DNA of 64,000 nt from an uncultured Bacteroidales bacterium (GCA_963650805.1 CAVJMG010000008.1:8199-72198); one strand, 5' to 3'. Shown: positions 16,111 through 53,913, counted from the stretch's first letter. Notes: generated from the sequence alone by a model not told the origin. Made by a program: numbers and translations.

Positions 16111-16232
16111 AACTCGCGTTAGTTTCGCTTATTTTTATAAAATAACGCTTGCCTTTTTTTCGCCGTGTGGTTAGGTATAGCAGCGCTTGCAGTTTTTTAA
16201 GCGTGATTACGTCAATGCAAAGGAGAAAAGCT

Positions 16233-18950: not shown

Positions 18951-18971
18951 TCCTTCGGAATTGCCTTGATT

Positions 18972-18996
18972 GCCGCCCCTTAAGGGGCGGCTTTTT
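18972..18996 (+). terminator. Rho-independent terminator after the oppA-like gene
   Basis: gccgcccct-taa-ggggcggc followed by TTTTT. Confidence 0.55.
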
Positions 18997-18997
18997 C

Positions 18998-19026
18998 TTG
19001 CATTGACGCCACTAGGGGCGTAATCT
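18998..19026 (+). promoter_or_regulatory. Candidate sigma-A promoter for oppBCDF (TTGCAT-17 nt-TAATCT)
   Basis: TTGCAT 18998-19003, 17-nt spacer, TAATCT 19021-19026; the oppB RBS AGGAAAGGG follows. Confidence 0.4.
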
Positions 19027-19081
19027 ACTTTCGTTGCCGTTTTGCTGCGGCTAGTTTTGGAATTATAGGAAAGGGAATTGC

Positions 19082-20131: not shown

Positions 20132-20141
20132 GGTTAAGGCA

Positions 20142-38779: not shown

Positions 38780-38818
38780 GTGGTAAATTGTGGTAGCCGA
38801 GGTGGTAAAAAGTGGTAA
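38780..38818 (+). promoter_or_regulatory. Putative MraZ operator: four direct GTGGTA(A/G) repeats at 10-12 bp phasing overlapping the mraZ start
   Basis: GTGGTAA 38780-38786, GTGGTAG 38790-38796, GTGGTAA 38802-38808, GTGGTAA 38812-38818; the last repeat contains the GTG start codon. Confidence 0.5.
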
Positions 38819-39240
38819 GCATATTCTATGGAACTTATTCGCGAAACCTCGACCCCAAAGGCAGGCTGATGCTTCCTAAGGAGCTCGGGATCGTCCCTGG
38901 AGAGACCCTCTACGTTATGAAGGGCTTCGAGGGATGCCTTAGCATCTATAAAGAAGAAGCCTTCGAAGCGATGGTGAAGAAGCTCTCTTCATTAAGCTAC
39001 GAAAACGAAGAAAGCCGTGCCTACATCCGCCTAGCCTGCGCCTCGATGTTCAAGATGCAGCTAGACAAAGTCGGCAGGGTGTTGCTTGGGAAGGATCTCC
39101 TCTTCGATTATTCGATCGGTCGGGAAGTCACTCTCATCGGCGTCCTCGATCATCTCGAACTCTGGGATGCCGGGGCCTACGCCAAATACCTCCTTGCCAA
39201 CGCGACGAAGTACGAATCCCTCGCAGGAAGGAGCCATTAA
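38812..39240 (+). CDS. mraZ: Transcriptional regulator MraZ
   Basis: N-terminus VSIFYGTYSRNLDPKGRLMLPKEL and a second DxxxR-type half (LDKVGRVLLGKDL). GTG start at 38812; there is no in-frame ATG upstream of the conserved N-terminus. Confidence 0.8.
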   Translation: MVSIFYGTYSRNLDPKGRLMLPKELGIVPGETLYVMKGFEGCLSIYKEEAFEAMVKKLSSLSYENEESRAYIRLACASMFKMQLDKVGRVLLGKDLLFDYSIGREVTLIGVLDHLELWDAGAYAKYLLANATKYESLAGRSH

Positions 39241-39242
39241 GG

Positions 39243-40169
39243 ATGGGAAGCCATTACCCCGTGTTGCTGCATGAAGCGTTTGAATCCCTGAACGTCAAAG
39301 AAGACGGGATTTACGTCGACTGCACTCTCGGCAGGGCAGGGCATTCCAGCCTTATCCTCTCCAAAGCTAAAAAGGGGCACCTGTATTGCTTCGACCTCGA
39401 CGAAGAGGCGATGGAAGAAAGCAGGGCCAAGCTTGAAGCTATCGGCGACAACTTCACCTTGATTCATTCCAATTTCGCGAATTTGAAGCAAGAGCTGAGC
39501 TCTAGAGGCGTTTATGCAGTCGACGGCATCTTAGCTGACCTTGGCGTCTCTAGCCCCCAATTCGACGAAGGGGAAAGAGGTTTCTCCTACAAAGAAGACG
39601 CCCCCTTGGACATGAGGATGGACCAAACCCAAGCCCTCACGGCAGCGGGGGTGGTCAACACCTACAGCGAGGATTCCCTTGCGAAAATCTTCTACGAATT
39701 CGGGGAAGACCCCGATTCGCGGAGAATCGCAAGAAACATCTGCCTTAGGAGAAAGCAAACCCCGATCAAGACGACCTTCGAACTCGTCGACATCATCAAA
39801 GCCAGCAAATCGGAAAAAGAGCTCCGCAAAAAAGGGCATCCGGCGAAGCAGATCTTCCAAGCCATCCGCATCGAAGTCAACGGCGAGGAAAAAGCCCTCG
39901 AAGCCTTGCTCCAAGACGGGCCCGAATTGCTGAATCCCAATGGAAGACTCGCCATCATCACCTTCATGTCGCTAGACGATCGCCTTGTTAAGCGCTCCTT
40001 CATTAGCCGCAGCAAAGCTGTCGTGGACCGCCACCAAATCTCTCTCCCCGGGCAAGAGGAGATGCCATATCGCTTATTAAGCCCAAAGCCGATTCTCCCT
40101 AGTGAAAAAGAGCTTGAGGAGAATAGGCGCTCCCAAAGCGCGAAGCTGCGGGTTCTTGAAAAGAAATAA
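39243..40169 (+). CDS. rsmH: 16S rRNA (cytosine1402-N4)-methyltransferase RsmH (MraW)
   Basis: HYPVLLHEAFESL...YVDCTLGRAGHS and DLGVSSPQFD motifs. Starts 2 nt after mraZ. Confidence 0.9.
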   Translation: MGSHYPVLLHEAFESLNVKEDGIYVDCTLGRAGHSSLILSKAKKGHLYCFDLDEEAMEESRAKLEAIGDNFTLIHSNFANLKQELSSRGVYAVDGILADLGVSSPQFDEGERGFSYKEDAPLDMRMDQTQALTAAGVVNTYSEDSLAKIFYEFGEDPDSRRIARNICLRRKQTPIKTTFELVDIIKASKSEKELRKKGHPAKQIFQAIRIEVNGEEKALEALLQDGPELLNPNGRLAIITFMSLDDRLVKRSFISRSKAVVDRHQISLPGQEEMPYRLLSPKPILPSEKELEENRRSQSAKLRVLEKK

Positions 40170-40209
40170 CTCCCAAGAATAAAAAGGAAAAAGGAAGGAG
40201 GGAGCCAAG

Positions 40210-40449
40210 ATGAAAGACAAACTCTACAAAACCGGTCACAAGAAAGCCTATTACCGCATCCGCGGCGCCGCCAGGGCGACTTTGTTCGCGCTTGCTTTGG
40301 GGCTTTCAACGGCGACCCCGATCCTCATCACCTATGGCGTGGAACAGTCTCGCGCCGAAGCCGCCAAAGAGAAGGAGAGCGTCAGCGAGACCGTTTCCGA
40401 ACCCACCTCCTCAGAGGAGATCCTCTCCTACAACGCAGCCCTAATCTAA
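40210..40449 (+). CDS. Small single-pass membrane protein in the division cluster (FtsL-position ORF)
   Basis: Strong RBS GGAAGGAGGG before ATG 40210. Basic N-terminus, one TM (ATLFALALGLSTATPILITYGV), acidic tail. Confidence 0.45.
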   Translation: MKDKLYKTGHKKAYYRIRGAARATLFALALGLSTATPILITYGVEQSRAEAAKEKESVSETVSEPTSSEEILSYNAALI

Positions 40450-40626
40450 AGCGAAAAAACGAAGCCGCTTTTAGGGCGCTCCAAAAAGCCGAAACGAAGA
40501 AAACCGCGGTCACAAGCGCGGTTTTTATATATAAAAAACGACTAGAAAACTACTAAAAATAGGCTTGAATTTGTCTTGTCAGCCCTCTAGGAAAATAAGT
40601 AGGGGTATATTAAAATATACCCGATT

Positions 40627-41889
40627 ATGGAAAACAAACTCCGCGCCTGCTTCGAAATCACCCAAAAAAGCATTAAAATCCTCATCGGCCATTGCCTTGG
40701 GGAGCAGCCTTTCGTCGTATACACCACCGAAAAAAGCATCGAGGGGCTCGTCAAAGACGGCCTTATAAAGGACAAAGCCGCGCTGTCTCAGTGCCTCCAG
40801 CAGTATTTGAAGGTGGAGGATGAAAGCGCCAACGTCCGCGTCACCATCGGGGAGATTGCTATCGTTTTGCCTCCCTTTGGCTTGAAAATCTATTCCAAAG
40901 ACGAATCGACGACTTCCGGGGCCGCGGATAAGCAAATCACCAAATCCGACATCAACACCGTCCTCAACAAAATCAAAAACGAGGAGATCCCGGGGGCCAA
41001 CGAGCTCGTCGACATCATTCCCACGAGCTTCGTCGTCAACGGCAACCAATCTTTCCTCAATCCTCCCATCGGGGTGGTGGGGCCTTCCTTGAGCATGAGG
41101 GCCATGATCCACACTTTGCCTAAGCCCATCGCCTTGGATTACCCAAGCCTCGCCAATTCTTCGGGCTTCCGGGTGAAGAAATCCTGCGTCGCCCCTTATT
41201 GCCAGGCGCAGCTATTCGCCACTGACCCGAGCCTCCCGAACACCTACATCCTCGTTGACCTCGGGGCCAAAACCACGAACGTTTCCATCGTCATCGGCCA
41301 CCAGCCCTATAGGACAGCGACTTGCTATCTCGGCGGAGACACTCTCACCGAGCAGATCGCCAACGATTTGGGCGTCGATTTGGAGAAAGCCGAGGAACTC
41401 AAGACGAAAATCGGCTACGACACTCGCCCCTTCCTCTATCGCCCTCCCCTGGCTAAAGGCGCCGACCCGATGAACGGGGCCGACAAATGGGTCGTTCAGA
41501 AAGACCTCAACAAGGCCATCGAATCCTATTTCAAGGCTTTCTTCGAGAAATTCGATGCCTGCCTTTCCTCCCTTTTCGACGGCGCGGAGAAGGATCTGCC
41601 CATCATCCTCACCGGAGGCGGCAGCAAATTGAATGGAATCGGAACCTTCTTCTCCGCTCACCGCGGCAAAAACCAGATTCTCAATCCCCATCTTAAAATC
41701 GTGGGAGGGGAGGACCCTCGGTATTCCGCTTGCCTTGGCTTGCTGATTGCCTGCGGGCATTATTCCGGGACTTTGGAGGACAACTACCACGGGGTGGCCT
41801 CGGTCTCGAGGGTTGAGGAAGAGCCCTCAAGCGAAAAGAAAGACAGACGCGCCTATAGAAGGCAAACGCCAAACGAAGACACCTTATGA
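40627..41889 (+). CDS. ftsA: Divergent FtsA-like actin-family cell-division protein
   Basis: Actin/Hsp70 fold signals: N-terminal phosphate-1-like region, ILTGGGSKLNGIGTFFS adenosine motif. Located immediately upstream of ftsZ. Confidence 0.6.
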   Translation: MENKLRACFEITQKSIKILIGHCLGEQPFVVYTTEKSIEGLVKDGLIKDKAALSQCLQQYLKVEDESANVRVTIGEIAIVLPPFGLKIYSKDESTTSGAADKQITKSDINTVLNKIKNEEIPGANELVDIIPTSFVVNGNQSFLNPPIGVVGPSLSMRAMIHTLPKPIALDYPSLANSSGFRVKKSCVAPYCQAQLFATDPSLPNTYILVDLGAKTTNVSIVIGHQPYRTATCYLGGDTLTEQIANDLGVDLEKAEELKTKIGYDTRPFLYRPPLAKGADPMNGADKWVVQKDLNKAIESYFKAFFEKFDACLSSLFDGAEKDLPIILTGGGSKLNGIGTFFSAHRGKNQILNPHLKIVGGEDPRYSACLGLLIACGHYSGTLEDNYHGVASVSRVEEEPSSEKKDRRAYRRQTPNEDTL

Positions 41890-41902
41890 GAGGAGCTAAT
41901 CG

Positions 41903-43066
41903 ATGAGCTACGAACAATCCATGGATTTAGATAATTTCGAACCGGTCGCTAGAATCGTCGTCATCGGCGTAGGCGGTGGGGGGAATAACGCGGTCAACCG
42001 CATGATCGACGAAAACATCCCCAACGTCGAATTCTACGTCATGAACACCGATAAGCAGGCTTTGGCGACCTCCAAAGCCCCCAACCGCATCGCCTTGGGC
42101 GAAGAATTGACCAACGGCCTCGGCGCGGGCGGGGACCCTGAAATCGGAAGGAAGGCCGCCGAGCTTTCGGTTGAGGACATCCGCGCCGTCGTCAAAGGGG
42201 CGAAGCTTGTTTTCATCGCCGCCGGAATGGGCGGCGGGACCGGGACCGGGGCGGCGCCGGTAGTGGCTTCAATCGCTAGGGAAGAGGGAGCGTTGACCGT
42301 CGCTATCGTCACCCGTCCCTTCACCTTCGAAGGGCAGCGGAGAATCAAGAACTCCGTGCAGGGGCTAAGCGACTTGAAAAGCGCGGTCGACTCCATCATC
42401 ATCGTCAGCAACGACAAATTGCTTTCCGCGGCGGGGAAGGCGCCAATTTCCGAGGCTTTCTCCTCTAGCGACGCCGTTTTGGCCCAATCGGTCAAGACCG
42501 TGACTGACCTCATTTTGATGCCTGCGATCATCAACCTCGATTTCGCTGACGTTTGCTCCACGCTGAAGGATTCCGGCATCGCTCTTATCGGGTTCGGCTC
42601 TGGATCTGGGCCAGACAAGGCCGAGGAGGCGGCGGAGAACGCGATCAACTCGCCTTTGCTGGAGGCTTCCATCTCCGGGGCGAGGAAAATAATCGTCTTC
42701 GTCACCTGCGGGCCCGGCGTCTCCTTGTTCGACGCGCAGGAATGCGTGACCAAAATCCAATCCACGGCCGGGAGCTCGGTGGACGTGATGTTCGGGGTGG
42801 CGATAAACGACCAGCTCGACGACACCATCCTCGTTTCGGTCATCGCCTCCCATTTCGCCGAGGAATACGATTTCACCTCCGTTCCCAAATACGTCCCTCC
42901 CCGGAAGGACCAAGTCGGCAGCGGAGTCGACGAGACGCGTTCCAAAAACATCCAAATCATCGAGGCTTCCGAAGACCAAAACGCCCAAAACGAAGAGGGC
43001 ATTGAGAAGAAAATCGTCCCCAATTTCCTCAAGGAAATGATGGAAGGCAAAGATTCCGGAAATTAA
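41903..43066 (+). CDS. ftsZ: Cell division GTPase FtsZ
   Basis: VIGVGGGGNNAVNRM, GGGTGTGAAPVVA and NVDFADV-like T7 loop; RBS GAGAGGAG. Confidence 0.95.
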   Translation: MSYEQSMDLDNFEPVARIVVIGVGGGGNNAVNRMIDENIPNVEFYVMNTDKQALATSKAPNRIALGEELTNGLGAGGDPEIGRKAAELSVEDIRAVVKGAKLVFIAAGMGGGTGTGAAPVVASIAREEGALTVAIVTRPFTFEGQRRIKNSVQGLSDLKSAVDSIIIVSNDKLLSAAGKAPISEAFSSSDAVLAQSVKTVTDLILMPAIINLDFADVCSTLKDSGIALIGFGSGSGPDKAEEAAENAINSPLLEASISGARKIIVFVTCGPGVSLFDAQECVTKIQSTAGSSVDVMFGVAINDQLDDTILVSVIASHFAEEYDFTSVPKYVPPRKDQVGSGVDETRSKNIQIIEASEDQNAQNEEGIEKKIVPNFLKEMMEGKDSGN

Positions 43067-43161: not shown

Positions 43162-44595
43162 ATGCGCAAAAGAAAAGCCCCCGTTTACTCACAGAATCAT
43201 CCTCGCTTCGCTTACGACGTTTTCCTGCAGGGGAAGACGCTATACGAAGAGGGGAAAGCCTCCATCACCTATTTCGATCCCCTTTCCTATGAAGTCCACG
43301 GCAACGTGGACGAAGACGGAAAGCGTTTCGCCATCGGGATGAGCTTCTCTCTTGACGGCGCTTTAAGCGGGGCTTCTTGCTCTTGCAAGGGCAATTCGTC
43401 CCATCCTTGCCGCCACATGGCCGCGGTTTTGCTGAAGCTTGAGGAGCAAGTGGGGGAAAAGGCGGAAGCCTCGCTCCCGGATTTCCTCTTCTACGTTAAA
43501 TCCCAGGCCCCCCTTTGCCTTTCCAAAGGCCCCATGAGCTACCTCAAGAAATGCGTCAAGGAGCTTAAGAAGAGGAAAGAGAAATGGAATTTCGATTCCA
43601 ATAGCGTCTACGAAGGCTTCAAGGCCATCCTTTCTTCCTCCCCTAGCTATAGCGGCTTCGGGGGAGAAGAGGAGGGGGAGGCGATCCCTAGCTTCCTAAG
43701 CGAGCTGGGGATGGGGGTCGACATGGTTTCCATGGCGATGTCGGAATTCCCGTCTTTGCTATCGGTGGATGCGAGGAAAGGGCTCTACATCGGCCTGCTT
43801 TCAAGCGAGGATTGGAAAGAACTCGCCACCGAGCGGTTCGAAGCCGGCCTCACCAACGGGGTCTCTTACGACGTTTTGCGGCTATATCTAGGGCAAGAAG
43901 AGAGCCTTCTTTGCTTGCTTAATTCCTATAGCCTCCATTTGCTTTGCCGGGCCGACTTCCGCTTCAAGGGGTTTGAGAGCTTGGCGAAGATGCTTTTGGA
44001 AAGGGGGGACGCGCAGGGGCTCTCCCTTCTTTGCGACAACGCCCATTGCGACCTGAGCTTCGCCTCCTGGAGCCAAATCGGCACCTTCTTGGAGAAGGAA
44101 GGCGACGTCGAAGACGCCTTATGCTGCTATAAGAAGATGTTCGGGAAAGGGGAGGGCGACCTTCCGGCCCTATGCGAATATTGGAGGGGCCTATCCGAAG
44201 AGGAGAAAGCCCTTAAGAAAGAGGATTTCACCGCCTCGCTTAAGGGGTCTGGACTATTGGCCCCGTTCTTGTTCCTATTAGGAGAAGGGAAAGACGAGGA
44301 CATCGCCTCCTTCCGCCTTGGGGATTTCCCCGCGCTTAAGAAGGAGCTTGAGGGCCATCCTTACGAGAACTATCTGATCGCCAAAATGAATAAGGCGCTC
44401 AAAGAGAAGGAGGGGGCCCACGAAGCCATTTGGTCTTGCTTCAGGGATTTCCCCTGCCTAGAAAGCACGCTTCTAGGGAAAGAGGCCGAGGAGCTCTCCT
44501 TGACCTCGCCTTACGACCGCTCGATTTACCTATATCTTTTGACGAAGAAGAAGCTTCTTGACCGCAAAGGGCTATCGCTATGGGAGGGAAAATGA
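43162..44595 (+). CDS. SWIM zinc-finger domain protein (partner of the downstream SNF2 helicase)
   Basis: CSCKGNSSHPCRHMAAVLL matches the SWIM CxC..CxH motif. The stop overlaps or abuts the SNF2 start. Confidence 0.6.
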   Translation: MRKRKAPVYSQNHPRFAYDVFLQGKTLYEEGKASITYFDPLSYEVHGNVDEDGKRFAIGMSFSLDGALSGASCSCKGNSSHPCRHMAAVLLKLEEQVGEKAEASLPDFLFYVKSQAPLCLSKGPMSYLKKCVKELKKRKEKWNFDSNSVYEGFKAILSSSPSYSGFGGEEEGEAIPSFLSELGMGVDMVSMAMSEFPSLLSVDARKGLYIGLLSSEDWKELATERFEAGLTNGVSYDVLRLYLGQEESLLCLLNSYSLHLLCRADFRFKGFESLAKMLLERGDAQGLSLLCDNAHCDLSFASWSQIGTFLEKEGDVEDALCCYKKMFGKGEGDLPALCEYWRGLSEEEKALKKEDFTASLKGSGLLAPFLFLLGEGKDEDIASFRLGDFPALKKELEGHPYENYLIAKMNKALKEKEGAHEAIWSCFRDFPCLESTLLGKEAEELSLTSPYDRSIYLYLLTKKKLLDRKGLSLWEGK

Positions 44596-44596
44596 A

Positions 44597-47500
44597 ATGT
44601 ATTTGAAGAACATTGGGCAAGAAACCCTCCAGAAATGGGAGGAGACCCTTTCGAAAAACTCCGATTTCAAATTAAACCTCGCTCTTCTAGACGATAGGAA
44701 AACGAAGATCGTCTACCGCTTCGACCTCGATTCAAAGACGCTTCTTTACGAAGCCTTCACCGGCGGTGGGGATTACCTCAGCTGCCTAATCGGCTCAGGC
44801 AAAACCGTTTCCAAAAACCCCGCCTTCCCCTCCGAAAGGGAGGATAAGAGCCTGCTCCTAGCCTATTACATCGCCAAAAAGGAAGAAGCGATGTCGGAGA
44901 CCGAAAGGAAAGCCGTCTATGGCAGCGATTACGTTTTCCTCCGGCAAGACGCCGATTTGAGCTTGGAAGAAGCCAACAAAATCGCCTCCAGCAACAAAGA
45001 GCTCGACGTGCTTTCGAAGAACCTCTATCAAAGCCTGCCGACTCTAGAAAAAGCCAGCAAGCCCGTTTTCTCCTATGTCTTCATCCGCGGCGAGGGAGGC
45101 ATGGTCAAAGCCTGCATGTACCTCATGCAGGGGAGCGAGAGAAAGAAAATCTCGAGCCCTGCGATGCTACTAGATTTCTATAAGAAGAGAAAGAAAGTGA
45201 CTCTAGGCGGAGCGGCCATCGACTTTGCCTTGCTTAGCGAAGTTCCTTCCTTGGATTTCCTCTGCTCTAGGGCGGAGACCTCCTCAACTTTAAGCGACAC
45301 CTTCTCGATGCGCGAAGAGGACTTCCCCCTTTTCCTAACCAAGCTCGTCGGGCAAAGCGTCGGCTATGGATTGGTCTTCTATAGCGTCAACGAGCCCGTC
45401 AAAGGCAAGTTCATCGCCGAAAGCGCCTCTAGCTTCTCTCTTCCCCATCCCCCGACTTCGGACATGGACTATTTCTCCTCTCCCTTTTACGGGGCCTGCT
45501 TTGACAAAGCCAGGAAGGAGCTGACTCTTTACCGCTTCCATTCTTTGGCCGCCTCGAAGTCCTACACCTATCTTTATTCCCATCCGGATTTCCCTTACGA
45601 CAAACTCGGCAGCAAACTCGCGACTTCCTTATTGCCTTATCTATCCAAGGAAGAGCTTGAAGGGGAGGGGTATCACCCTCTCTCCATTTCCTATAGGCTC
45701 GCCTTCGAGCCTTCAAAAGGCATCCTCTGCGAAAGCCATTATAGGCGCGGAAATAAGGAACTCTCCCCTTCTGACTTCCTCTCGATGCCCGAGAAGCGCA
45801 GAAAAGAGATTTTCCAATCCTCCTTGGTTTCTCTCGGCTTGCTTGAAAACGGGCTCATTTCCGACCCTAAGCGCATCAATGCGACGATCGAGAAAGACCT
45901 CAACCCCCTGAAGGCCCTCTGCGACGCCGAAATCGATCCCTTGCTCAGCGCCGGGCGCCCCAGAAGGCTCCCTTTGCCGACCTTCCGCTTGGAGAAAAGC
46001 TCCTTCGGCGAGTGGTTCGACCTTAAGCTCTCCAGCGAGGAATTCACCGAAGAAGAGCTCAACTTGGCCTTATCTAGCTACGTGGAGAAGAAGAAATACA
46101 TCCCCCTTAAGGGGAGGTTCTATTCTCTTTCTTCCCTTGATAGCAGCCTCATCCCAACGTTGCTTGAAATGAGGATCAACCCCTCGACGTCGTGCAAATT
46201 GACCCTCCCCGAGGCCATGAGGCTCCGCGGAGAAGGGGCAGAAGGGGCGACGAGCTCCGGCGAGCTTAAAGGCATCCTCGAAGACGTCATCGACTACGAA
46301 AAGCTGACCCTTCCGAAATCCAGCGCCCCCGCGTTTAAATTGCTCCGTCCCTACCAAGCTAGCGCGGTCAAGTGGATGAAGGCCCTATCCAACCATGGAC
46401 TAGGCGGCATTTTGGCGGACGAGATGGGCTTAGGGAAAACCCTTGAGAGCATCACTTTCCTCTCCTTGCTCGATAAGCCTTCCCCAATCCTCGTCGTCGC
46501 GCCCAAATCGGTTCTTTGCAATTGGAAGGAGGAGTTCGCCAAATTCGACCCCTCCATGGAAGTCACTTTGCTCCCTTCCCCCCAAAAGGAAAGGGAAGAC
46601 ACCATCCTCTCCATTAGAAACGACAGGAAAGTCGCCTATTTGACCTCTTACGACTCCCTTCGAAACGACATTGAGTATTACAAAGGCAAGCATTTCAGCT
46701 GCGTCATCCTCGACGAAGCCCAGACGATCGCCAACGCCTTTGCCAAAAAATCCCTCGCCGTCAAGGAAATTGAAGCCGATTGCCGCTTCGCCCTCACCGG
46801 CACCCCGATCCAAAACTCCCTCCTTGACCTCTGGTCCATCTTCGATTTCCTCTTGCCGGGGTATTTCGCCGACTACTCTTCCTTCAAGGGGGAATACGGG
46901 TCTGGCGAATTCGCCAGCCCCTCCCAAAGAAAGAAACTCGAGGCAAAGATTTCACCCTTCTTGCTCCGCCGCACCAAAAAGGAGGTCCTCATCGACTTGC
47001 CTAAGCGCGAGGAGAAGGAGTACTTCCTCGAATTGCCCGAAGAGCAAAGAAAAGTCTACGACGCCTATCTTGCCTTGGCCAAAGGCGAGCTTAAGAAGGC
47101 CCTTTCCGGGGAAGGGGACAGGATCTCGGTTTTGGCCGCGATCACCAGGCTCCGCCAAATCTGCGTTTCGCCTTCCCTTTTCCTAGAATACGATGGGGAA
47201 GCCATCAAAATCGATTATCTCATGGATTCGCTTCTCTCCTTGCTTGAGGAAGGGCATAAAGCGCTGGTGTTCTCCAGCTTCGTCTCCGCTCTTGAAATCG
47301 TCAATGGAAAACTTGACGAAGCCCACATCAAGCATGGCTTCTTGCAAGGATCCTCGTCTGCCGAAGATAGGCAATCGATGGCCTCTTCCTTCAATAACGA
47401 TCCCTCCGACAAGGTGATGCTCGTCTCCTTAAAAGCGGGGGGGACCGGGCTTAACCTCACCGGCGCGGACACCGTTTTTCTCCTCGATCCCTGGTGGAAC

Positions 47501-47704
47501 CTCTCCGCGGAAGAGCAGGCCTTCGCCCGCGCTCACCGCATTGGCCAAGACAAAAACGTCACGGTCTTCAAGCTCATCGCGATTGGGACGGTTGAGGAGA
47601 GAATGCTTGCCTTGCAGAAGAAAAAGAAGGATTTGGGAACCGTTCTGGGAGGCATTACATCCTCGACGTTCACCAAAGACGACTTCGCATTCTTGCTTTC
47701 GTAA
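44597..47704 (+). CDS. SNF2/RAD54-family DEAD-like helicase
   Basis: LRPYQASAVKWM (motif I region), GILADEMGLGKT (Walker A), VILDEAQTIAN (DEAQ box), TGTPIQNSL, and a C-terminal helicase domain GGTGLNLTGADTVFLLDPWWN...HRIGQ. ATG 44597 sits just after the SWIM stop at 44593-44595. Confidence 0.8.
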   Translation: MYLKNIGQETLQKWEETLSKNSDFKLNLALLDDRKTKIVYRFDLDSKTLLYEAFTGGGDYLSCLIGSGKTVSKNPAFPSEREDKSLLLAYYIAKKEEAMSETERKAVYGSDYVFLRQDADLSLEEANKIASSNKELDVLSKNLYQSLPTLEKASKPVFSYVFIRGEGGMVKACMYLMQGSERKKISSPAMLLDFYKKRKKVTLGGAAIDFALLSEVPSLDFLCSRAETSSTLSDTFSMREEDFPLFLTKLVGQSVGYGLVFYSVNEPVKGKFIAESASSFSLPHPPTSDMDYFSSPFYGACFDKARKELTLYRFHSLAASKSYTYLYSHPDFPYDKLGSKLATSLLPYLSKEELEGEGYHPLSISYRLAFEPSKGILCESHYRRGNKELSPSDFLSMPEKRRKEIFQSSLVSLGLLENGLISDPKRINATIEKDLNPLKALCDAEIDPLLSAGRPRRLPLPTFRLEKSSFGEWFDLKLSSEEFTEEELNLALSSYVEKKKYIPLKGRFYSLSSLDSSLIPTLLEMRINPSTSCKLTLPEAMRLRGEGAEGATSSGELKGILEDVIDYEKLTLPKSSAPAFKLLRPYQASAVKWMKALSNHGLGGILADEMGLGKTLESITFLSLLDKPSPILVVAPKSVLCNWKEEFAKFDPSMEVTLLPSPQKEREDTILSIRNDRKVAYLTSYDSLRNDIEYYKGKHFSCVILDEAQTIANAFAKKSLAVKEIEADCRFALTGTPIQNSLLDLWSIFDFLLPGYFADYSSFKGEYGSGEFASPSQRKKLEAKISPFLLRRTKKEVLIDLPKREEKEYFLELPEEQRKVYDAYLALAKGELKKALSGEGDRISVLAAITRLRQICVSPSLFLEYDGEAIKIDYLMDSLLSLLEEGHKALVFSSFVSALEIVNGKLDEAHIKHGFLQGSSSAEDRQSMASSFNNDPSDKVMLVSLKAGGTGLNLTGADTVFLLDPWWNLSAEEQAFARAHRIGQDKNVTVFKLIAIGTVEERMLALQKKKKDLGTVLGGITSSTFTKDDFAFLLS

Positions 47705-47721
47705 ATCCGATGAACAACGAG

Positions 47722-47748
47722 AAAAACGGGATGCAATCCCGTTTTTTT
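47722..47748 (+). terminator. Rho-independent terminator after the SNF2 gene
   Basis: aaacgggat-gcaa-tcccgttt followed by TTTTT. Confidence 0.6.
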
Positions 47749-47952
47749 GTTAATAAATAATGTTATTAAAAAAGTTAACTTTTCTTTGCTTTTCGGATAA
47801 CTTACTAGTATATTGAGTTCATAAGGTGAATAATCGGCTCAAGGAGGCACGATGTTAAGTACGTTGTTTTTAGTCGCGGGCGCTGCATTAAGCTGTGTCT
47901 ATCGTCTGAGGGAAAATCCGCCGGCAAATGGGCGCAAGACACCGAGAAAGCC

Positions 47953-48228
47953 GTGGTGGAAATACCTCGGTATTACAAAATAAAGAAGAACATCATCGGA
48001 AGTACTAAATACGTGGAAAACTACCATTGGTGCTTAAATACTTCTTATCTTTGCAACGGCGCCTTGCCTGAGAACGAATGTTTCCATCACGAAGGAACGA
48101 AGTTCTACTCAACGGTCGTCTCCAAAGGGAACGGAAAGACTTATTACGGATGTCTTAATCTTCTTTACGGGGATGGCGCTTTAGAAAAACTCTTTGAAAA
48201 AGAAGCGAAAAGCCTAGATGAAATTTAA
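47953..48228 (+). CDS. Cys/His-containing 91-aa hypothetical protein at the left edge of the AT-rich islet (alternative: overlapping 43-aa ORF 47852..47980)
   Basis: GTG start with no strong RBS; 4 Cys and 3 His. The overlapping out-of-frame ORF 47852-47980 has a better RBS (AAGGAGG) and a lipoprotein-like leader LFLVAGAALSC. The coding assignment is unresolved. Confidence 0.25.
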   Translation: MVEIPRYYKIKKNIIGSTKYVENYHWCLNTSYLCNGALPENECFHHEGTKFYSTVVSKGNGKTYYGCLNLLYGDGALEKLFEKEAKSLDEI

Positions 48229-48240
48229 GAGGAAGAAAAA

Positions 48241-48483
48241 ATGAAAAGCAGCAATAAGGCAATAAAATGGATTAAAAATCCGGAGAATTGGATTCCTTGG
48301 ACGGTTTTCGGCGGCATATTGGTGGCCGTGATTCTATCCTGGATGACAATATTCTTCGTGGAATATGGGCCGTATTTTGATCGTGGCTACCAAGAGAATC
48401 TGTTCGATTGTTTGGCTTGGAACGAAAAAGGGGAAAGAAACGATTATATATTAGATGATTATACAAAAGTGTTGGTGAATTAA
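48241..48483 (+). CDS. Islet cassette gene B1: ~80-aa single-pass membrane protein (paralog of 50112..50348), with the C-terminus replaced by IS1595 left-IR sequence
   Basis: RBS GAGGAAG. KWIKNPENWIPWTVFGGILVAVILSWMTIFFVEYGPYF is ~80% identical to the downstream paralog over the conserved core. The last ~10 codons (LDDYTKVLVN) lie inside the IS inverted repeat. Confidence 0.45.
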   Translation: MKSSNKAIKWIKNPENWIPWTVFGGILVAVILSWMTIFFVEYGPYFDRGYQENLFDCLAWNEKGERNDYILDDYTKVLVN

Positions 48484-49500
48484 ACCCCGCAACCCGGAGG
48501 TTGAGCCTATAATCAAACCGCTAGATAAACGGCAAGGGTAGCCGCCGGGACGGTTTATCTAGCAGTATCCCTTTCTCCGGCGGCTACCCTTGCTCAAGAA
48601 AGGGATTTTTTGATGCTTGGGAAATTGATTTGCCCGCGGTGCGGCTCCGCGGACGTCGTCTCTTATGGGAGGGCAAAGAAGAAACGTGCCAGAATGCTGT
48701 GCAAGGCCTGTGGCCGCACCTTCTCGAGGACCACGGGGACCGTGATGTTCTCGCGGAAGCTGAGGGCGGAGAAGCTGGCCGCGATGGTCAATCTCATGGT
48801 GAACGACACGAAGCTCAAGGCCATAGAGGATTCCGTCGGCATCACGCCGAGCACCGCCTACCTCTGGAGGATGAAGGCCTACGCGGCGGCGAGGAAAATT
48901 CGCGACGGAGCCGTCCTTTCCGGCGACGTTTGGATCGACGAGAAGCTCATCCCCGTCAACGAGGGCCTGATATGGCGAAGGCCGGACGGCAAAAAGCCCA
49001 GGGGGATCTCGAGGAACCAGATCGTCGTCGCCTGCGCCGTCGACGGGGAGGGGAAGCGCTACGCCGAGGTCGCCGGGAAAGGGCACATCAGCTCCCTCCA
49101 ATGCCTCAAGACGTACGGCAGGCACATAGCCAAAGGCTCGACCATCATCCACGACGGGATCTTCAGCCACGACGCCCTCGCCGCCTCCGTCGGCGGGGCG
49201 TCCAAGGTCTACAAGTCGACGACGCGCGAGGCCCACGCGAAGCTCCAGAAGGTCAATTCGTTCATAGCCGAGATAGAGAGGTTCGTCACGGTCCATCCGG
49301 GCCTGAAGAGCGATTACCTCGACCTCTACGCCGCCTGGGTGGCCTTCAAGGCGTCGCTCAAGGAGGGGAAAATGGACCAGAAGATAGCGGAACTTCTGCA
49401 AATTTGCGAAGAAACGCCTGCCGAGTTTTGCCGTAAAACTCGACGGCATCGAAAATAACCCATCAACACTTTTGTATAATCATCTATTATATATCAATCG
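48441..49500 (+). mobile_element. IS1595-family insertion sequence (~1.06 kb), apparently intact
   Basis: ~38-bp imperfect terminal inverted repeats: left cgattatatattAGATGATTATACAAAAGTGTTGgtg (48441-48478); right is its reverse complement at 49459-49500 (24-nt perfect core). Encodes one transposase. GC is host-like (~60%), unlike the flanking ~38% GC genes. Confidence 0.65.
48610..49458 (+). CDS. IS1595-family (ISXO2-like) DDE transposase
   Basis: N-terminal zinc ribbon CPRCGS...CKACGRTF, helix-turn-helix region, then DDE motifs GDVWIDEKLI / IVVACAVDGEGKRY / GSTIIHDGIFSH. Confidence 0.75.
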   Translation: MMLGKLICPRCGSADVVSYGRAKKKRARMLCKACGRTFSRTTGTVMFSRKLRAEKLAAMVNLMVNDTKLKAIEDSVGITPSTAYLWRMKAYAAARKIRDGAVLSGDVWIDEKLIPVNEGLIWRRPDGKKPRGISRNQIVVACAVDGEGKRYAEVAGKGHISSLQCLKTYGRHIAKGSTIIHDGIFSHDALAASVGGASKVYKSTTREAHAKLQKVNSFIAEIERFVTVHPGLKSDYLDLYAAWVAFKASLKEGKMDQKIAELLQICEETPAEFCRKTRRHRK

Positions 49501-49532
49501 AAATTAATAACGACTTCTATTGGGAAATCTCT

Positions 49533-50018
49533 ATGACCGTTGATTTTGACGGGGACAGTTCTTATGGGAGCCGCGTGATCAGCAACGATTCCAAAGGCAA
49601 CGGCGTGGCCTATAAAATCGAAAAAGACGCGGCCGTTATGGACTGCTATAAAGTCATTAATTCCGAACTAAAAGAGAAAACCAGCGGAACGCTTCTTTCA
49701 TCGACAGAATTTGCTTCATTTTGCATTGACCTGCAATTGCCTTCATCCGAGATGTCCTTTAAACCCAAAATGGATAACATCTCCGTTTTCAAAAAAGACA
49801 ACGCCCTTGTCAGCGAAGCCTCGATGCCTCGAAACAAGACCTATTCACTTTGCTGCGCTGGTTGGGAGAAAACGATTGAACTTTCTAACGTCAAGGTTTC
49901 TTGCTTTTCCTATCCTTGGAAGAGTGAAACGGGCTCTTATATGCAGAGCTTTTCAGTGAAGGGCTATAGCCAAGGGTCGCTTATAAACGCTCATTGGACT
50001 GCGGCGTGGGCGGCCTGA
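49533..50018 (+). CDS. Islet cassette gene C1: 161-aa soluble hypothetical protein (intact copy of the 50379..50863 pseudogene)
   Basis: Shares SEMSFKPKMDNISVFKKDNALVSEASMPRNKTYSL.....EKTIELSNVKVSC with the downstream frameshifted copy. No signal peptide. AT-rich codon usage. Confidence 0.45.
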   Translation: MTVDFDGDSSYGSRVISNDSKGNGVAYKIEKDAAVMDCYKVINSELKEKTSGTLLSSTEFASFCIDLQLPSSEMSFKPKMDNISVFKKDNALVSEASMPRNKTYSLCCAGWEKTIELSNVKVSCFSYPWKSETGSYMQSFSVKGYSQGSLINAHWTAAWAA

Positions 50019-50111
50019 TGAATGTTTGCGGTTGCAGCGGGCTTTTTTGAAGGTCGCCCTGATCCAATGGTTTTACAAACCGGCCTTTGAATGTCTTTAA
50101 AAGTGAAAGAA

Positions 50112-50348
50112 ATGAGAATGAAGAACGAGAAGAAAATCATCAAGTGGATGAAGAAACCCGAGAATTGGATTCCCTGGACGGTTTTCGGCGGCATACTGGT
50201 CGCTGCCATCTTGTCTTGGATGACCACCTTCTTTGTTGAATATGGGACCTATTTCAACTCGGATTACCAAATCTCCTTATTCAAAGGAAGGGAACGTAGG
50301 CAAGAGGGGACGCTTTTTGAGATGGGCCATATTTACGTTGACGGGTAG
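50112..50348 (+). CDS. Islet cassette gene B2: ~79-aa single-pass membrane protein, intact paralog of B1
   Basis: MKNEKKIIKWMKKPENWIPWTVFGGILVAAILSWMTTFFVEYGTYF. The start is chosen by alignment to B1; the track ORF begins at 50091. Confidence 0.45.
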   Translation: MRMKNEKKIIKWMKKPENWIPWTVFGGILVAAILSWMTTFFVEYGTYFNSDYQISLFKGRERRQEGTLFEMGHIYVDG

Positions 50349-50378
50349 CTTACTTGGGACGCAGATTCGACTTTCGAT

Positions 50379-50863
50379 ATGAAAGTCGGAGGATCGACAT
50401 GGAACTTCATTAGAATCGCCAACGCGAAAGGCGACGGTTATTCATATAGGGTCGATGAGGAGAAAGGCATACTCGTGAAAAGCCAAATTTCCAGTGGAGA
50501 GAAAAAGGGAATCTCAACGCAAGGAATCCCTTCCAGAAAGGATTTCATGGACATGGGATTTAGTTTTAATCTTCCCGTGGAGGAGATGTCCTTCAAACCG
50601 AAAATGCAGAGCATCTCACTTATTAAAAGGACAACGCCTTGGTAAGCCGAGCCAAAATGCCCGAAAACAAGGTTTATTCTATGAAACTAGGGGGCTTTGA
50701 GAAGACGTTTGAATTGTCTTCCGTATCCCTTTCTTGCGTGGCTTCCCCCTGGAGCGAAGATCAAGACAAGGTAAGCTCGACGACGTTTAGATACAAAATC
50801 AGCGGCTATTTCGAAAACGCACATATCGAGATATCGCGCTGGATGTGCTGGAGCTACGCCTGA
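50379..50863 (+). pseudogene. Islet cassette gene C2: frameshifted paralog of C1 (two ORFs, 50379..50645 and 50639..50863)
   Basis: EEMSFKPKMQSISLIKRTTPW* is followed in the +1 frame by AKMPENKVYSMKLGGFEKTFELSSVSLSC, which is collinear with C1. Frame break near 50640. Confidence 0.45.
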
Positions 50864-50889
50864 TAGGCCTCGCACCCTAAACGCCTTTT

Positions 50890-51180
50890 CCTTAAGGAAA
50901 ACCCGTCTTGTTTATACCTTGCCGCGGCATTAAGATATCCGTGGCGATGACGAAGACGCGCCGCTTCCCAAAGACAGAGAACCCCGCCGAAGTTGAGAAG
51001 GGGGAAGGGAAGGGGACATCACTTCCGAGCCCGTTCTTCGAGTCCATTTGGAGGTAGGGGAGCCCGCTTCTTGCCGGGAGCAAGATTCAATGAAGCGCTT
51101 GGGCGATGCCCAAGAAGCAAGGTGGTACCGCGCATTGAGCGCCCTTGCGCAAGCAGGGCGCTTTTATTTATCCAAAGGAG
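50890..51180 (+). promoter_or_regulatory. T-box riboswitch leader upstream of ileS (Ile specifier AUC)
   Basis: T-box core caAGGTGGTACCGCGca at about 51118-51134. Terminator hairpin gagcgccctt-gcgcaagca-agggcgc followed by TTTTATTTA (51138-51170). Candidate specifier gacATCact. Confidence 0.55.
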
Positions 51181-51186
51181 AAAACT

Positions 51187-53913
51187 ATGGGCTACAAAGA
51201 AACGCTGCACATGATGCAAACCGAATTCCCCATGAGGGCGGGGCTCGCTAGCAAAGAGCCGGTCCTCGTGAAGAAGTGGGAAGAGGAAAAACTCTATGAG
51301 AAGATGAACCGAAATAGGGTCGATTGCCCCGAGTTCATGCTTCACGATGGCCCTCCCTACGCCAATGGGGACATGCACTGCGGCCACGCCTTGAACCGCT
51401 GCCTCAAGGATTTCGTCATCCGCTACAAAAACATGTCGGGCTACAAAACCCCCTTCGTTTTCGGCTGGGATACGCATGGCCTCCCCATCGAAACCCGCGT
51501 CACCAAATCCGGAGTTGATAGGAAGAAGACCCCGCTTCCCGAATTCAGAAGAATCTGCGAAGACTACGCGAAAACCCAAGTCGATAGGCAAAAAGCCCAA
51601 ATCAAGAGGCTTGGCTGCCTCGGCGATTATTCCCATCCTTATTTGACCCTTCTCCCCGAATACGAGGCAAGGCAAGTCGAAGTCTTCGCCAAAATGGCTT
51701 TGAAAGGGCTGATATTCAAAGGCCTTAAGCCGGTTTATTGGAGCTGGAGCAGCGAGAGCGCTTTGGCCGAAGCCGAGGTCGAATACGCCGATGTGACCGC
51801 CAAAACGATGTACGTCGCTTTCCCAATCAAGGACGGGAAAGGCGTTTTGCCGTTAGATTGCTCCATCGTCATTTGGACCACGACCCCTTGGACCATCCCA
51901 AGCAACCAAGGCATCACGGTCAATCCCGCTTTCGAATATGGGCTATTCGAAACAGAGAAAGGGAAGTTCGTCTTCCTTTGCTCGCTTAAAGAGAAGCTGC
52001 AAGCAGAGCTCGGATTTGAGAAGTGCGAGCTTTTGAAAACCTTCAAAGGCGCCGAAATGGATGGCATCTTGGCTTTCCATCCGCTTTATGATGACCGCGT
52101 TTCCTTGGTGATGAACGCCAACTTCGTCACCGAGGATTCCGGAACCGGATGCGTCCACACCGATCCTGACCACGGCTTAGACGACTACAACACCTGCCTC
52201 AAATACGGCCTCAAACCCCAAGAAACCGTCGATGAGAGGGGCATTATGCACTTCAACGAAGGCGACCCATGGAATGGCGTCTTCTACGAAAAGGCCAACG
52301 ACCTCGTCATCGAGGCCTTGACCCAAAGGGGGAGGATGCTCAAAGAACAAGACCTCGTCCATAGCTACCCCCATGACTGGAGGACCCATAAGCCCGTCAT
52401 CTTCCGCGCCACGCCGCAATGGTTCTGCTCCATCGAGCCCATCCGGAAAGACCTGCTCAATGAGATTGAACGCATTCAGTGGCTTCCTTCCTGGGGCAAA
52501 GAGAAGATGGTCAACATGATCAAAGACAGAGCCGATTGGTGCATTTCCCGTCAGCGCGTTTGGGGCGTCCCTCTCCCCATTATCTATAACGAAGACGGTT
52601 CCCCGATTCTAGAGGAGGCTGTCTTCGCCCATATTCAAGAGCTTTTCAGACAATATGGTTCCAACGTGTGGTTTGAAAGGGAAGCCAAGGACTTGCTTCC
52701 TGAAGGCTACACCAACCCCAAGTCTCCCAATGGGCTCTTCACCAAAGAGAAGGACATCATGGACGTTTGGTTCGATTCCGGCTCGTCTTGGAACGGCGTC
52801 CTCAACGAAAGGGGCATGTCTTGCCCGGCCGACCTCTATTTGGAGGGGAACGATCAATACCGCGGCTGGTTCAATAGCTCGCTCATCCTCTCCCTCGCCG
52901 TCTCTGGTCATAGCAGCTTCAAAGCCTGCCTCACCCACGGCTTCGTCATGACAGAGGATTGGAAGAAGATGTCCAAGTCCGCCGGAAACGGGGTCGACCC
53001 CAACAAAATCGCCGGCGAATACGGGGCGGACATCCTCCGCCTTTGGGCCGCGACCGTCGACTATCAAGCCGACGTTAGAATCGGTGAGCGCATCATCGCC
53101 ACGACCGCCGATAACTATAGGAAAATCCGCAATACGTTCCGCTTCTTGCTGGGCAACCTCGCCCATTATCAAGGGGAAAGCGTTGATAATGTCGAGCTTT
53201 CTTTGATTGACCGTTATATTTTAGCCGAAGAAGAAAGAGTCAAGAACAAAGCCCTCGACTGCTATGACCGCTACGATTTCTCCGGCGCGGTCAACGCCAT
53301 CATCGCCTTCATGGGCAATGACCTCTCTTCCTTCTATTTGGACATGGCCAAAGACGTCCTTTATTGCGACGCCATCTCTTCGCCTAGAAGACAAGCCGTC
53401 GAAGCCGTCATCTATTCTTGCTGCTATGAGCTTTGCCTCCTTCTTAACCCGATTCTCCCCTTTACCATGGAAGAAGTTTACGGGTATCTTCCGCTTAAGA
53501 AGAAAGAATCCCCTCAGCTTGAGGACATGCCTAAGCGCACCCATAGTTACGGCGAAAAAGAGCTAAGTGGCTACGCTTCTTTCAAGAAGCTCCGCCTCTT
53601 AGCCAACAAATCCCTTGAGGAAGCCCGCCGAAAAGGGCTCATCGGGAATTCAGAAGACGCTAAGCTCGGGCTTGTTGTCTCCGACAAAGATTTCTACGAA
53701 GTCTTGTCCAAAGAGGGAGAAGAAGCCCTTTGCAAAGCCTTCATGGTGTCCTCTATTTCCCTTAGCCAAGGCGAAGACAAAGCCGTTGTCGAAGTCGACG
53801 CTAGGCCCCTTTGCCCAAGGTGTCGAAACCACGTGGACGAACTCCATGGGCAAGGCGAGGAGGCCATTTGCCGCCGCTGCGAGGAAGCCGTCGCGGAAGG
53901 GAAGGGCGAATGA
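51187..53913 (+). CDS. ileS: Isoleucine--tRNA ligase
   Basis: N-terminus MGYKETLHMMQTEFPMRAG, HIGH motif PPYANGDMHCGHAL, KMSKS motif KKMSKSAGNG, C-terminal Zn finger CPRCRNH...CRRCEE. ATG 51187 after AAAGGAG. Confidence 0.9.
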   Translation: MGYKETLHMMQTEFPMRAGLASKEPVLVKKWEEEKLYEKMNRNRVDCPEFMLHDGPPYANGDMHCGHALNRCLKDFVIRYKNMSGYKTPFVFGWDTHGLPIETRVTKSGVDRKKTPLPEFRRICEDYAKTQVDRQKAQIKRLGCLGDYSHPYLTLLPEYEARQVEVFAKMALKGLIFKGLKPVYWSWSSESALAEAEVEYADVTAKTMYVAFPIKDGKGVLPLDCSIVIWTTTPWTIPSNQGITVNPAFEYGLFETEKGKFVFLCSLKEKLQAELGFEKCELLKTFKGAEMDGILAFHPLYDDRVSLVMNANFVTEDSGTGCVHTDPDHGLDDYNTCLKYGLKPQETVDERGIMHFNEGDPWNGVFYEKANDLVIEALTQRGRMLKEQDLVHSYPHDWRTHKPVIFRATPQWFCSIEPIRKDLLNEIERIQWLPSWGKEKMVNMIKDRADWCISRQRVWGVPLPIIYNEDGSPILEEAVFAHIQELFRQYGSNVWFEREAKDLLPEGYTNPKSPNGLFTKEKDIMDVWFDSGSSWNGVLNERGMSCPADLYLEGNDQYRGWFNSSLILSLAVSGHSSFKACLTHGFVMTEDWKKMSKSAGNGVDPNKIAGEYGADILRLWAATVDYQADVRIGERIIATTADNYRKIRNTFRFLLGNLAHYQGESVDNVELSLIDRYILAEEERVKNKALDCYDRYDFSGAVNAIIAFMGNDLSSFYLDMAKDVLYCDAISSPRRQAVEAVIYSCCYELCLLLNPILPFTMEEVYGYLPLKKKESPQLEDMPKRTHSYGEKELSGYASFKKLRLLANKSLEEARRKGLIGNSEDAKLGLVVSDKDFYEVLSKEGEEALCKAFMVSSISLSQGEDKAVVEVDARPLCPRCRNHVDELHGQGEEAICRRCEEAVAEGKGE

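Follow-up and report, generated by a model that had tools for sequence, protein, structure and literature searches.

Anatomy of the SNF2-ileS islet

The stretch of DNA considered here, 64,000 nucleotides filed under an uncultured Bacteroidales bacterium (GCA_963650805.1, CAVJMG010000008.1:8199-72198; hereafter the window), contains an AT-rich islet of about 3.2 kb between the gene for an SNF2-family helicase (44558-47704) and ileS (51187-53913). It is almost certain that this islet is what is left of a decayed, lineage-restricted operon of two genes, here called A and BC, and that every coding part of it is dead. A survives as two terminal stumps, one copy of BC is split by an insertion sequence (IS), and a second copy of BC carries a nonsense codon and a frameshift (Table 1). 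BC is our name for a single gene, encoding about 245 aa, whose 5' and 3' parts had been taken in a first-pass annotation of the sequence for two genes, B and C. Throughout, L numbers denote loci or contigs of relatives and P numbers denote proteins of relatives.

The single-gene nature of BC is clearest in copy 1. A search with C (49533-50018) among 5.8 billion proteins returned only two matches, of 244 and 222 aa, both longer than the query and both with the B sequence as their N-terminus. One of these, P0001 (244 aa, 94% identical), opens with the complete B of copy 1 and passes from ...ERNDYI directly into SIEINNDFYWEISMTVDFDG... and on into the C of copy 1. P0001 is encoded on contig L001, which over 8.5 kb matches the window at 98% identity and carries one intact open reading frame (ORF) of 244 codons, and a 244-codon ORF is likewise obtained from the window when the IS and one copy of its target-site duplication are taken out (48241-48451 joined to 49495-50018). 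Because removal of the IS restores the frame seen in L001, the B of copy 1 must be read as codons 1-70 followed by ten codons (71-80, to 48483) that come from the inverted repeat of the IS, and the start of C (ATG 49533) as the internal Met84, which lacks a good ribosome-binding site. The proposed architecture of a small membrane protein with a soluble partner is thus an artefact of gene disruption, and the intact gene, as found in L001 and five other lineages, encodes one membrane-anchored protein; the conserved motifs quoted for B and C are nonetheless present. A duplicated bicistronic cassette in which B and C both function as genes of their own is hardly credible. ORFs of those sizes with ATG starts do exist, and a weak promoter-like match is found at 49463-49490, but all full-length homologues, whether intact or repaired, are single ORFs, and promoter-like matches are no more numerous than in shuffled sequence. 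Moreover, the tail of the first B is IS sequence, the junction of the second B with its C is a nonsense codon within a conserved block, and C, beginning at an internal methionine with a poor ribosome-binding site, would on its own have no anchor and would be in the wrong compartment.

The element dividing copy 1, which the first-pass annotation had also taken for an IS, is confirmed as a recently inserted 1,035-bp member of the IS1595 family with its target duplication. Its transposase matches NF033547 (IS1595) at 81.2 bits (cut-off 75) and PF12762 (DDE_Tnp_IS1595) at 29.9 (cut-off 27), with an N-terminal zinc ribbon recognised by NF050000 (35.6 bits). The ends are perfect 23-bp terminal inverted repeats, TAGATGATTATACAAAAGTGTTG, flanked by an 8-bp duplication, TTATATAT, at 48444-48451 and 49487-49494; at the empty site in L001, TTATATAT is present once. 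The IS is single-copy in the window, and the identical insertion allele occurs in an independent public assembly (L022, Logan SRR13434624). With 57% GC it holds the GC maximum of the window (up to 0.64), and GC at third codon positions (GC3) is 0.83 in its transposase vs about 0.68 in host genes, a composition that suggests a source of higher GC. The DDE_Tnp_IS1595 domain, zinc ribbon, length of about 1 kb, inverted repeats and 8-bp duplication are all shared with other IS1595-family elements, and nothing is unusual here beyond a GC content that is high relative to the host. An outward promoter at the right end of the element that might drive C (49463-49490; 9/12 consensus) was considered and rejected, such matches being no commoner than in shuffled sequence.

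Copy 2 of BC is a pseudogene of which the second B and its split C are the three pieces. An in-frame TAG (50346-50348), at a position occupied by Glu in L001 and P0007 and inside a well-aligned block, makes the boundary between B and the first part of C, and a -1 frameshift, through loss of a single base in an A-run at about 50623-50628, makes the break between the two parts of C. Across these lesions the copy aligns over its full length with the intact P0020 at 47-53% identity (tblastn). The tandem duplication and the frameshift in copy 2 that had been described therefore stand, but the duplicated unit is not a two-gene cassette. Direct repeats (D1-D3) retain 73-80% nucleotide identity between the two tandem units, and the proteins of type 1 (copy 1) and type 2 (copy 2) share about 41% of their amino acids; the two copies are old paralogues. 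Copy 2 differs from its counterpart in L001 at 11.2% of nucleotides, vs 1.2-2.2% in the flanking genes; the 11.2% is similar to or above the synonymous divergence (dS) of 0.05-0.09 in the flanks and indicates a neutral-like rate. L019 has both types too, and L002 has remnants of both. Relative to A they run A-type 2-type 1 in L019 (8001-9509) and L002 (9688-10669), and A'-type 1-type 2 in the window (48241-50863) and L001; the array has therefore been reshuffled, either by unequal crossing-over or because a longer ancestral array lost different members in different lineages.

Upstream of both copies lie the stumps of gene A, in different frames and with about 330 codons deleted between them. 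The N-terminal stump is 68% identical to residues 1-31 of A in L019 (E 3e-8) and 48% identical to P0013 (tblastn). The C-terminal stump is 50-53% identical to the C-termini of A in L004 and L019 (E 2e-25 to 2e-27, tblastn) and scores 84 bits with the A profile (hmmsearch, profile positions 380-482). Two small ORFs noted earlier at the left edge of the islet are not genes in their own right, being the N- and C-terminal stumps of an A gene of about 480 aa. The 43-aa 'lipoprotein-leader' ORF (47852-47983) starts MLSTLFLVAGAALSCVYRLRE, runs out of frame past the deletion, and matches at its start the N-terminus of the partner family (P0013 starts MLSELFVIVGTALSCVYGIRKE); the 'Cys/His-rich' ORF of 91 aa (47953-48228) is part of the C-terminal stump, and its Cys content is not conserved, because two Cys differ in L001. 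It is because only stumps of A remain here that the real two-gene unit, A with BC, had been missed. No further pieces of A or BC occur elsewhere in the 64-kb window.

The promoter-like element of gene A is followed by a GGAGG ribosome-binding site and an ATG at 47852, and this block of promoter, ribosome-binding site and start codon is near-invariant in the window, L001, L002, L017 and L019, in the last of which A is intact. About 45 nt containing TTGCTT-N17-TATATT (within 47786-47851) are near-invariant across the five genomes even where A is destroyed, whereas other intergenic DNA has diverged by about 10% or more. The conserved block 5' of gene A may hold a regulatory site beyond the promoter.

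Without the IS the islet measures 2,133 bp and has 43.7% GC against a window mean of 52.5% (z about -1.95, with a standard deviation of 4.5% for 500-nt windows), and it is the longest low-GC stretch of the whole 64 kb. From SNF2 to ileS the GC profile falls from about 0.53 to 0.39-0.47, except in the GC-rich block at 48.5-49.4 kb, and GC3 is about 0.52 in the islet vs 0.68-0.70 in comparison. The composition break that had been proposed is thus borne out by a windowed calculation but its size is not, since 38% GC against 55-60% had been claimed, whereas the flanks have 53% and only single 300-nt windows reach 39%. Neither integrase nor att-like repeats nor tRNA were found at the borders. To the right, and outside the module, the predicted T-box of ileS proves to be a full-length T-box-like leader, although with a sub-threshold score: it matches RF00230 at 52.4 bits, below the gathering score of 93 (E 9.5e-11 in a permissive 451-nt search; model positions 1-219), and an Rfam scan at the gathering threshold reports no T-box there. 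The leader carries the T-box sequence GGUGGUACCGCG (box also given as AAGGUGGUACCGCG) and a specifier, AUC (51018-51020; AUC-A), which was read by eye and matches the downstream synthetase, and a terminator at 51143-51158 lies directly 5' of ileS; it looks like a divergent T-box lineage. The general description of the islet as an accessory, compositionally atypical, duplicated and decaying locus holds.

Table 1. Features of the islet and its boundaries (window coordinates)
Feature	Coordinates	Strand	Basis
SNF2 intrinsic terminator, hairpin and T-run; left boundary of the locus	47722..47746	+	terminator scan; kept in L001, L017, L019
Promoter-like TTGCTT-N17-TATATT of gene A	47786..47814	+	read from sequence; function predicted
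Gene A N-terminal stump, codons 1-31, hydrophobic leader MLSTLFLVAGAALSC...	47852..47944	+	tblastn, N-terminal alignment
Gene A C-terminal stump, about residues 361-474 of 474-492; frame differs from N-terminal stump	47917..48228	+	tblastn, hmmsearch
BC copy 1 (type 1), 5' part, codons 1-70: Lys-rich cytoplasmic tail, one transmembrane helix, juxtamembrane helix	48241..48451	+	100% identical to P0001 1-70; hydropathy
IS1595-family insertion sequence, 1,035 bp	48452..49486	+	profiles, inverted repeat, empty site in L001
IS transposase ORF	48610-49458	+	NCBIfam NF033547, Pfam PF12762
BC copy 1, 3' part, codons 71-244: extracytoplasmic beta-rich domain	49495..50018	+	95% identical to P0001 69-244
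Terminator-like hairpin and T-run after BC copy 1	50024..50048	+	terminator scan, consensus match only
BC copy 2 (type 2), pseudogene	50118..50863	+	three-frame translation, alignment
T-box-like leader of ileS; right boundary, outside the module	50938..51149	+	Rfam RF00230 and terminator scan

The A-BC module in related genomes and its decay

A and BC are two very rare families without a Pfam or NCBIfam model. When 1.84 billion cluster representatives were scanned in full with HMMER, nine matched BC, two of them being the window's own fragments, and the full-length matches, of 225-245 aa, all have the same architecture of a transmembrane (TM) segment plus a domain; a BC profile search added one more protein, and a search with A found seven. 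Neither family has a match in Pfam, NCBIfam, PADLOC, PHROGs or PDB sequences (noise only; PHROGs E above 0.01), in agreement with the earlier statement that no motif of a described family was recognised in either protein, and scans of viral contigs with both family profiles returned nothing. A match of P0001 in Paenibacillus sediminis was discarded; it lies antisense inside proS and reflects a chance SCFSYPWK word.

The two genes are adjacent at every locus with enough flanking sequence (L004, L005, L006-11, L012/13, L014, L016, L019, L021 and L023; eight lineages in three chromosomal contexts), and where BC directly follows A they are 1-18 nt apart or overlap. The A proteins encoded next to BC are large and without Pfam domains (492 aa in L005, at least 400 aa in L004, 818 aa in L006). 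The arrangements are SNF2-A-BC-ileS (L005, L019, L021), rSAM-A-BC-GT1-DegV (L004, L012/13, L023/24), DUF402-A-BC-tsaE (L016), BC-A(799 aa)-BC-BC (L014, where A has BC copies to either side) and, in reverse gene order, BC-A(818 aa) (L006-L011). The co-occurrence of A and BC is strict, in no fewer than five lineages and in three genomic contexts. The A proteins of 799-818 aa come from two AT-rich organisms (L014 7233-11977, GCA_964583155.1; L006 3239-5695) and have a C-terminal extension with CxxC/HxxxC clusters and a beta-rich domain. In L014, A is flanked by three BC paralogues and lies next to genes for a D12 DNA methyltransferase, a DUF6339 protein, a helix-turn-helix (HTH) repressor-like protein and a Ser-rich lipoprotein.

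The composition of the islet had been called foreign, and its deficits in GC and GC3 would fit a recently acquired foreign island whose low GC marks horizontal transfer, as would the host-like composition of the module in the AT-rich L006 and L014 and its different contexts in different genomes. Such a recent acquisition is nevertheless very improbable. Seven related genomes, in which SNF2 shows 52-99% identity to the window's protein, have the module at this very site between SNF2 and ileS, with a conserved promoter, and any acquisition therefore predates the clade. No close relative was found with an SNF2-ileS junction free of an A or BC remnant, the borders show none of the marks of integration sought above, and apart from the IS, which is GC-rich and came later, there is no mobile element. 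Pseudogenes drift towards AT, and such drift adds to the dip. GC3 of the module is low even in intact, anciently syntenic copies (L005, L012, L016, L019), at 0.39-0.51 (up to 0.70 for BC in L005) vs 0.57-0.85 in the neighbouring genes; for A the values are 0.39-0.48, even where A is intact. This low GC3 may derive from an old transfer out of an AT-rich lineage.

Loci at the SNF2-ileS position form a graded series of decay (Table 2). Wherever A is intact, it is accompanied by one or more intact BC genes, and BC lesions are present at four of the four loci in which A has been deleted (the window, L001, L002 and L017), of which L001 retains one intact BC. The BC of L002 (9926-9975) is out of frame, and a sibling NCBI assembly has an intact protein of 247 aa (P0021); the nonsense allele of L017 is found again in most of the members read from its cluster (20 in all). 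Between the window and L001 the ratio of nonsynonymous to synonymous substitution (dN/dS) is 0.02-0.04 for the upstream housekeeping genes ftsA, ftsZ, SWIM and SNF2, 0.24 for the first BC copy and 0.38 for the A stump. A plausible sequence of events is that A was deleted at the SNF2-ileS locus, that the BC copies would thereby have lost their partner, and that they would then have drifted. The comparative series of coupled loss is good genetic evidence that A and BC work together.

Table 2. SNF2-ileS loci: amino-acid identity to the window (%) and state of A and BC
Locus	SNF2	IleRS	FtsZ	A	BC
Window				stumps	copy 1 split by IS; copy 2 TAG and frameshift
L001	99	not covered	99.5	stumps	copy 1 intact; copy 2 two frameshifts
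L017	94	95	97	leader only	three in-frame stops
L019	90	94	90	intact	type 2 intact; type 1 frameshifted
L002	90	91	87	leader fused to type-2 C-terminal remnant	type 1 with one extra A in A7 run
L021	60	87	not covered	intact	intact
L005	52	87	77	intact	intact

Redundancy offers a reason for this decay. A sister species, whose SNF2, IleRS and FtsZ proteins are 94-97% identical to those of the window, carries on one contig (NODE_74_length_251248) both L017, its decayed SNF2-ileS locus, and L023, a second locus that is intact and has the order rSAM-A(478)-BC(245)-GT1-DegV, the radical S-adenosylmethionine (rSAM) protein being MiaB-like and GT1 a glycosyltransferase; because of this second locus, the SNF2-ileS copy is redundant. 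The sample that yielded the exact IS allele of the window (L022) also yielded L004, a second locus of the equivalent kind. It is rather likely that redundancy explains the decay, directly in the sister species and by extension in the genome of the window. The locus in the window, as non-functional debris of A-BC together with an ordinary IS, is of low interest in itself and matters mainly as a correction; the A-BC module is of moderate interest.

Predicted proteins and their host

All ten aligned BC members have one strongly hydrophobic N-terminal segment (Kyte-Doolittle 2.0-2.5). Its N-terminal flank is net positive, and its C-terminal flank is negative in the clade of the window and near neutral in the AT-rich members; these charges predict that BC runs from an N-terminus inside to a C-terminus outside. 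In the AlphaFold model of P0001 (predicted local distance difference test, pLDDT, 80; predicted template modelling score, pTM, 0.73) a TM helix at 20-46 and a second helix at 48-59 are followed by about 12 antiparallel strands and two short helices. Foldseek against the PDB gave weak matches only, and PDB entry 4eg9 led to nothing useful in the literature. On the model, the external domain is predicted to be an unclosed beta-barrel of the LolA/LppX/LprG-like kind (SSF89392).

The A protein of about 480 aa consists of a short hydrophobic N-terminal leader, an acidic and Ser-rich linker, a beta-sandwich and a conserved region. Because the model of A has a pLDDT of 54, only the beta-sandwich is interpretable, and it is modelled as a jelly-roll fold of PPC type; Pfam PPC (PF04151) matches none of the seven A proteins. 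The invariant motifs WENEIWPxNAPRRG, TRR, GYVDPI and IPRFY fall in the unmodelled region. A is predicted to be exported. The leader has a Cys in P0011, P0013, P0014 and the stump in the window, and none in P0012, P0015, P0017 and L002. Lipidation is not a family trait of A, because the Cys is not conserved and basic residues are usually absent.

The organism itself may, on general knowledge of gene clusters of Mollicutes type, be a wall-less member of the Bacilli, as its gene content suggests. The division cluster runs mraZ-rsmH-(79-aa gene)-ftsA-ftsZ (window 38812-43066; L002 698-4953) with no pbp, mur or ftsW between, and the oligopeptide-transporter (Opp) genes (16149-25008) encode unusually long products: an SBP_bac_5/OppA-like protein of 933 aa, an OppC-like permease of 694 aa and an ATPase of 483 aa with an insertion in its ATP-binding cassette (ABC) domain. 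Long Opp proteins are reminiscent of the Opp systems of Mollicutes. The stop codons of the host are standard. Large putative surface proteins are clustered on the minus strand (6298-9474, 10995-13145, 13452-15590 and 27360-30167), among them a 1,058-aa BspA-type leucine-rich repeat protein with Listeria-Bacteroides repeats and a 716-aa Big_2 protein; two ORFs of the cluster, of 712 and 935 aa, have no Pfam match.

If the host is indeed wall-less, BC would be directly exposed at the surface, and the frameshifts in A tracts could be taken for reversible ON/OFF switches of phase-variable or antigenically variable surface proteins, as in the surface-protein families of Mycoplasma, which use homopolymer-tract ON/OFF switching. 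The BC of L002, which is out of frame by one extra A in an A7 run and intact at 247 aa in the sibling assembly, is compatible with this, as are the frameshift of the second BC of the window in a short A-run and the single Lys codon, within a poly-A stretch, by which P0036 and P0040 differ from P0005. However, the other lesions are irreversible (the IS; nonsense codons, one in the window and three in L017; the deletion of A), the A-run in the window has just 4-5 bases, the second BC is diverging at a neutral-like rate, and errors in homopolymer length are also the commonest assembly artefact. We regard phase variation as highly doubtful.

Proposed partnership and its relation to known systems

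The LolA/LppX/LprG-like fold holds acyl chains or hydrophobic segments. With this in mind, it is possible, on analogy, that BC serves as a membrane-tethered receptor, holder or activator of the co-translated A at the cell surface, where it may grip the hydrophobic N-terminus of A or a lipid ligand on which A acts; we speculate that the TM segment and juxtamembrane motif of BC contact the hydrophobic N-terminus of A within the membrane. Put more generally, and just as tentatively, A-BC might be an undescribed two-component surface system of uncultured, probably wall-less Bacilli, in which the role of A's obligate partner, be it as holder, activator or immunity factor, would fall to a TM-anchored protein with a LolA fold, and A itself would be an exported PPC-domain protein with a new conserved domain, the series of A deletions showing that neither works alone. 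If these organisms are truly wall-less Bacilli of gut or rumen, the module would be part of their poorly known surface biology.

Taken as a whole, this account of the anatomy of the islet, its decay through redundancy and a partnership of A with BC is probably the best explanation of the observations, and several points weigh against it. The persistently low GC3 of the module, even in intact syntenic copies, does not follow from it, and the second locus in the window's own genome is inferred from the fact that L004 shares a sample with the IS allele. Profiles for LolA, LolB, LppX_LprAFG and MucB_RseB (Pfam, NCBIfam) match none of the ten BC members even at E up to 10, nor is there a PDB sequence match, and BC has a TM anchor, not a lipobox. 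For A, the poor model leaves the conserved central domain uninterpreted, the n-region of the leader is in most members not positively charged, and the Cys is present in some members only.

The first-pass annotation had looked towards a toxin/immunity, bacteriocin/immunity or abortive-infection module, and when transferred to the right gene pair this reading makes A an exported toxin, BC an outward-facing tethered immunity protein, and the extra BC copies an immunity array. Several observations speak for such a scheme: A and BC are tightly adjacent or overlapping in all lineages, one to three BC paralogues accompany each A (L014, L019, the window), GC and GC3 are below those of the host in mid-GC genomes and several chromosomal locations are occupied, BC decays once A is gone, and the unassigned, strongly conserved region of A could be enzymatic. 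Against this, searches of Pfam, NCBIfam, PADLOC and PHROGs gave no match to a profile for toxins, immunity proteins, secretion or defence, and nine neighbourhoods, with flanks of up to 10 kb, contain no genes for type VII or type VI secretion systems, contact-dependent inhibition, ABC exporters or phage, nor are there relatives on viral contigs; in the search for defence genes PADLOC gave no match, and only L014 lies near the D12 methyltransferase, DUF6339 and HTH genes. At its C-terminus A is conserved and not swapped, with 47-53% identity from one paralogous locus to another, and orphan immunity genes are usually retained, whereas here they are decaying. To our knowledge, the LolA-like fold is not among known immunity folds. 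A toxin/immunity function is for these reasons unlikely, if less so than the other alternatives discussed here, and the locus in the window is not to be pursued as such a cassette, its supposed genes being debris of two genes and an IS.

The decayed A-BC pair may be compared with several known systems. With polymorphic toxin/immunity and bacteriocin/immunity cassettes it shares a tight gene pair, variable copy number of the smaller membrane gene, atypical composition and frequent decay, and it differs from them in having no toxin domain, swapped C-termini, secretion or export genes, or matches in defence databases. PPC (pre-peptidase C-terminal)/collagen-binding domains are found in clostridial and Bacillus collagenases; that of A is below any Pfam threshold, is not on a protease, and lies N-terminal to a large, unassigned conserved region. 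Relative to LolA/LppX/LprG-like proteins, BC has no detectable sequence relationship, is anchored by an N-terminal TM helix with a conserved juxtamembrane motif, KKPENWIP...FFVEYGxYF, and not by a lipobox, belongs to a single-membraned, probably wall-less host that would have no outer membrane, and is strictly paired with A. The LolA-like superfamily includes, in addition to LolA itself, LppX and LprG, which carry lipids, and RseB, a regulator, and LolA-fold proteins are known as dedicated protein partners in single-membraned Firmicutes (bioRxiv 10.1101/2025.01.13.632879). In particular GerS, a LolA-like lipoprotein of Clostridioides difficile, allosterically activates the amidase CwlD (bioRxiv 10.1101/2025.01.13.632879). 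GerS-CwlD provides the working analogy for BC and A, in that a LolA-fold protein of a Firmicute has the role of binding a specific protein partner and not that of carrying lipoproteins. The two differ in that GerS is a lipoprotein of spore formers whose partner is a recognisable amidase, whereas A has no amidase or other known catalytic domain, there is no sporulation context, and the binding of A by BC is a prediction. What the comparison yields is a structural lead: in bacteria with a single membrane, a putative LolA/LprG-like domain tethered by a TM helix and its pairing with an exoprotein that has a PPC domain.

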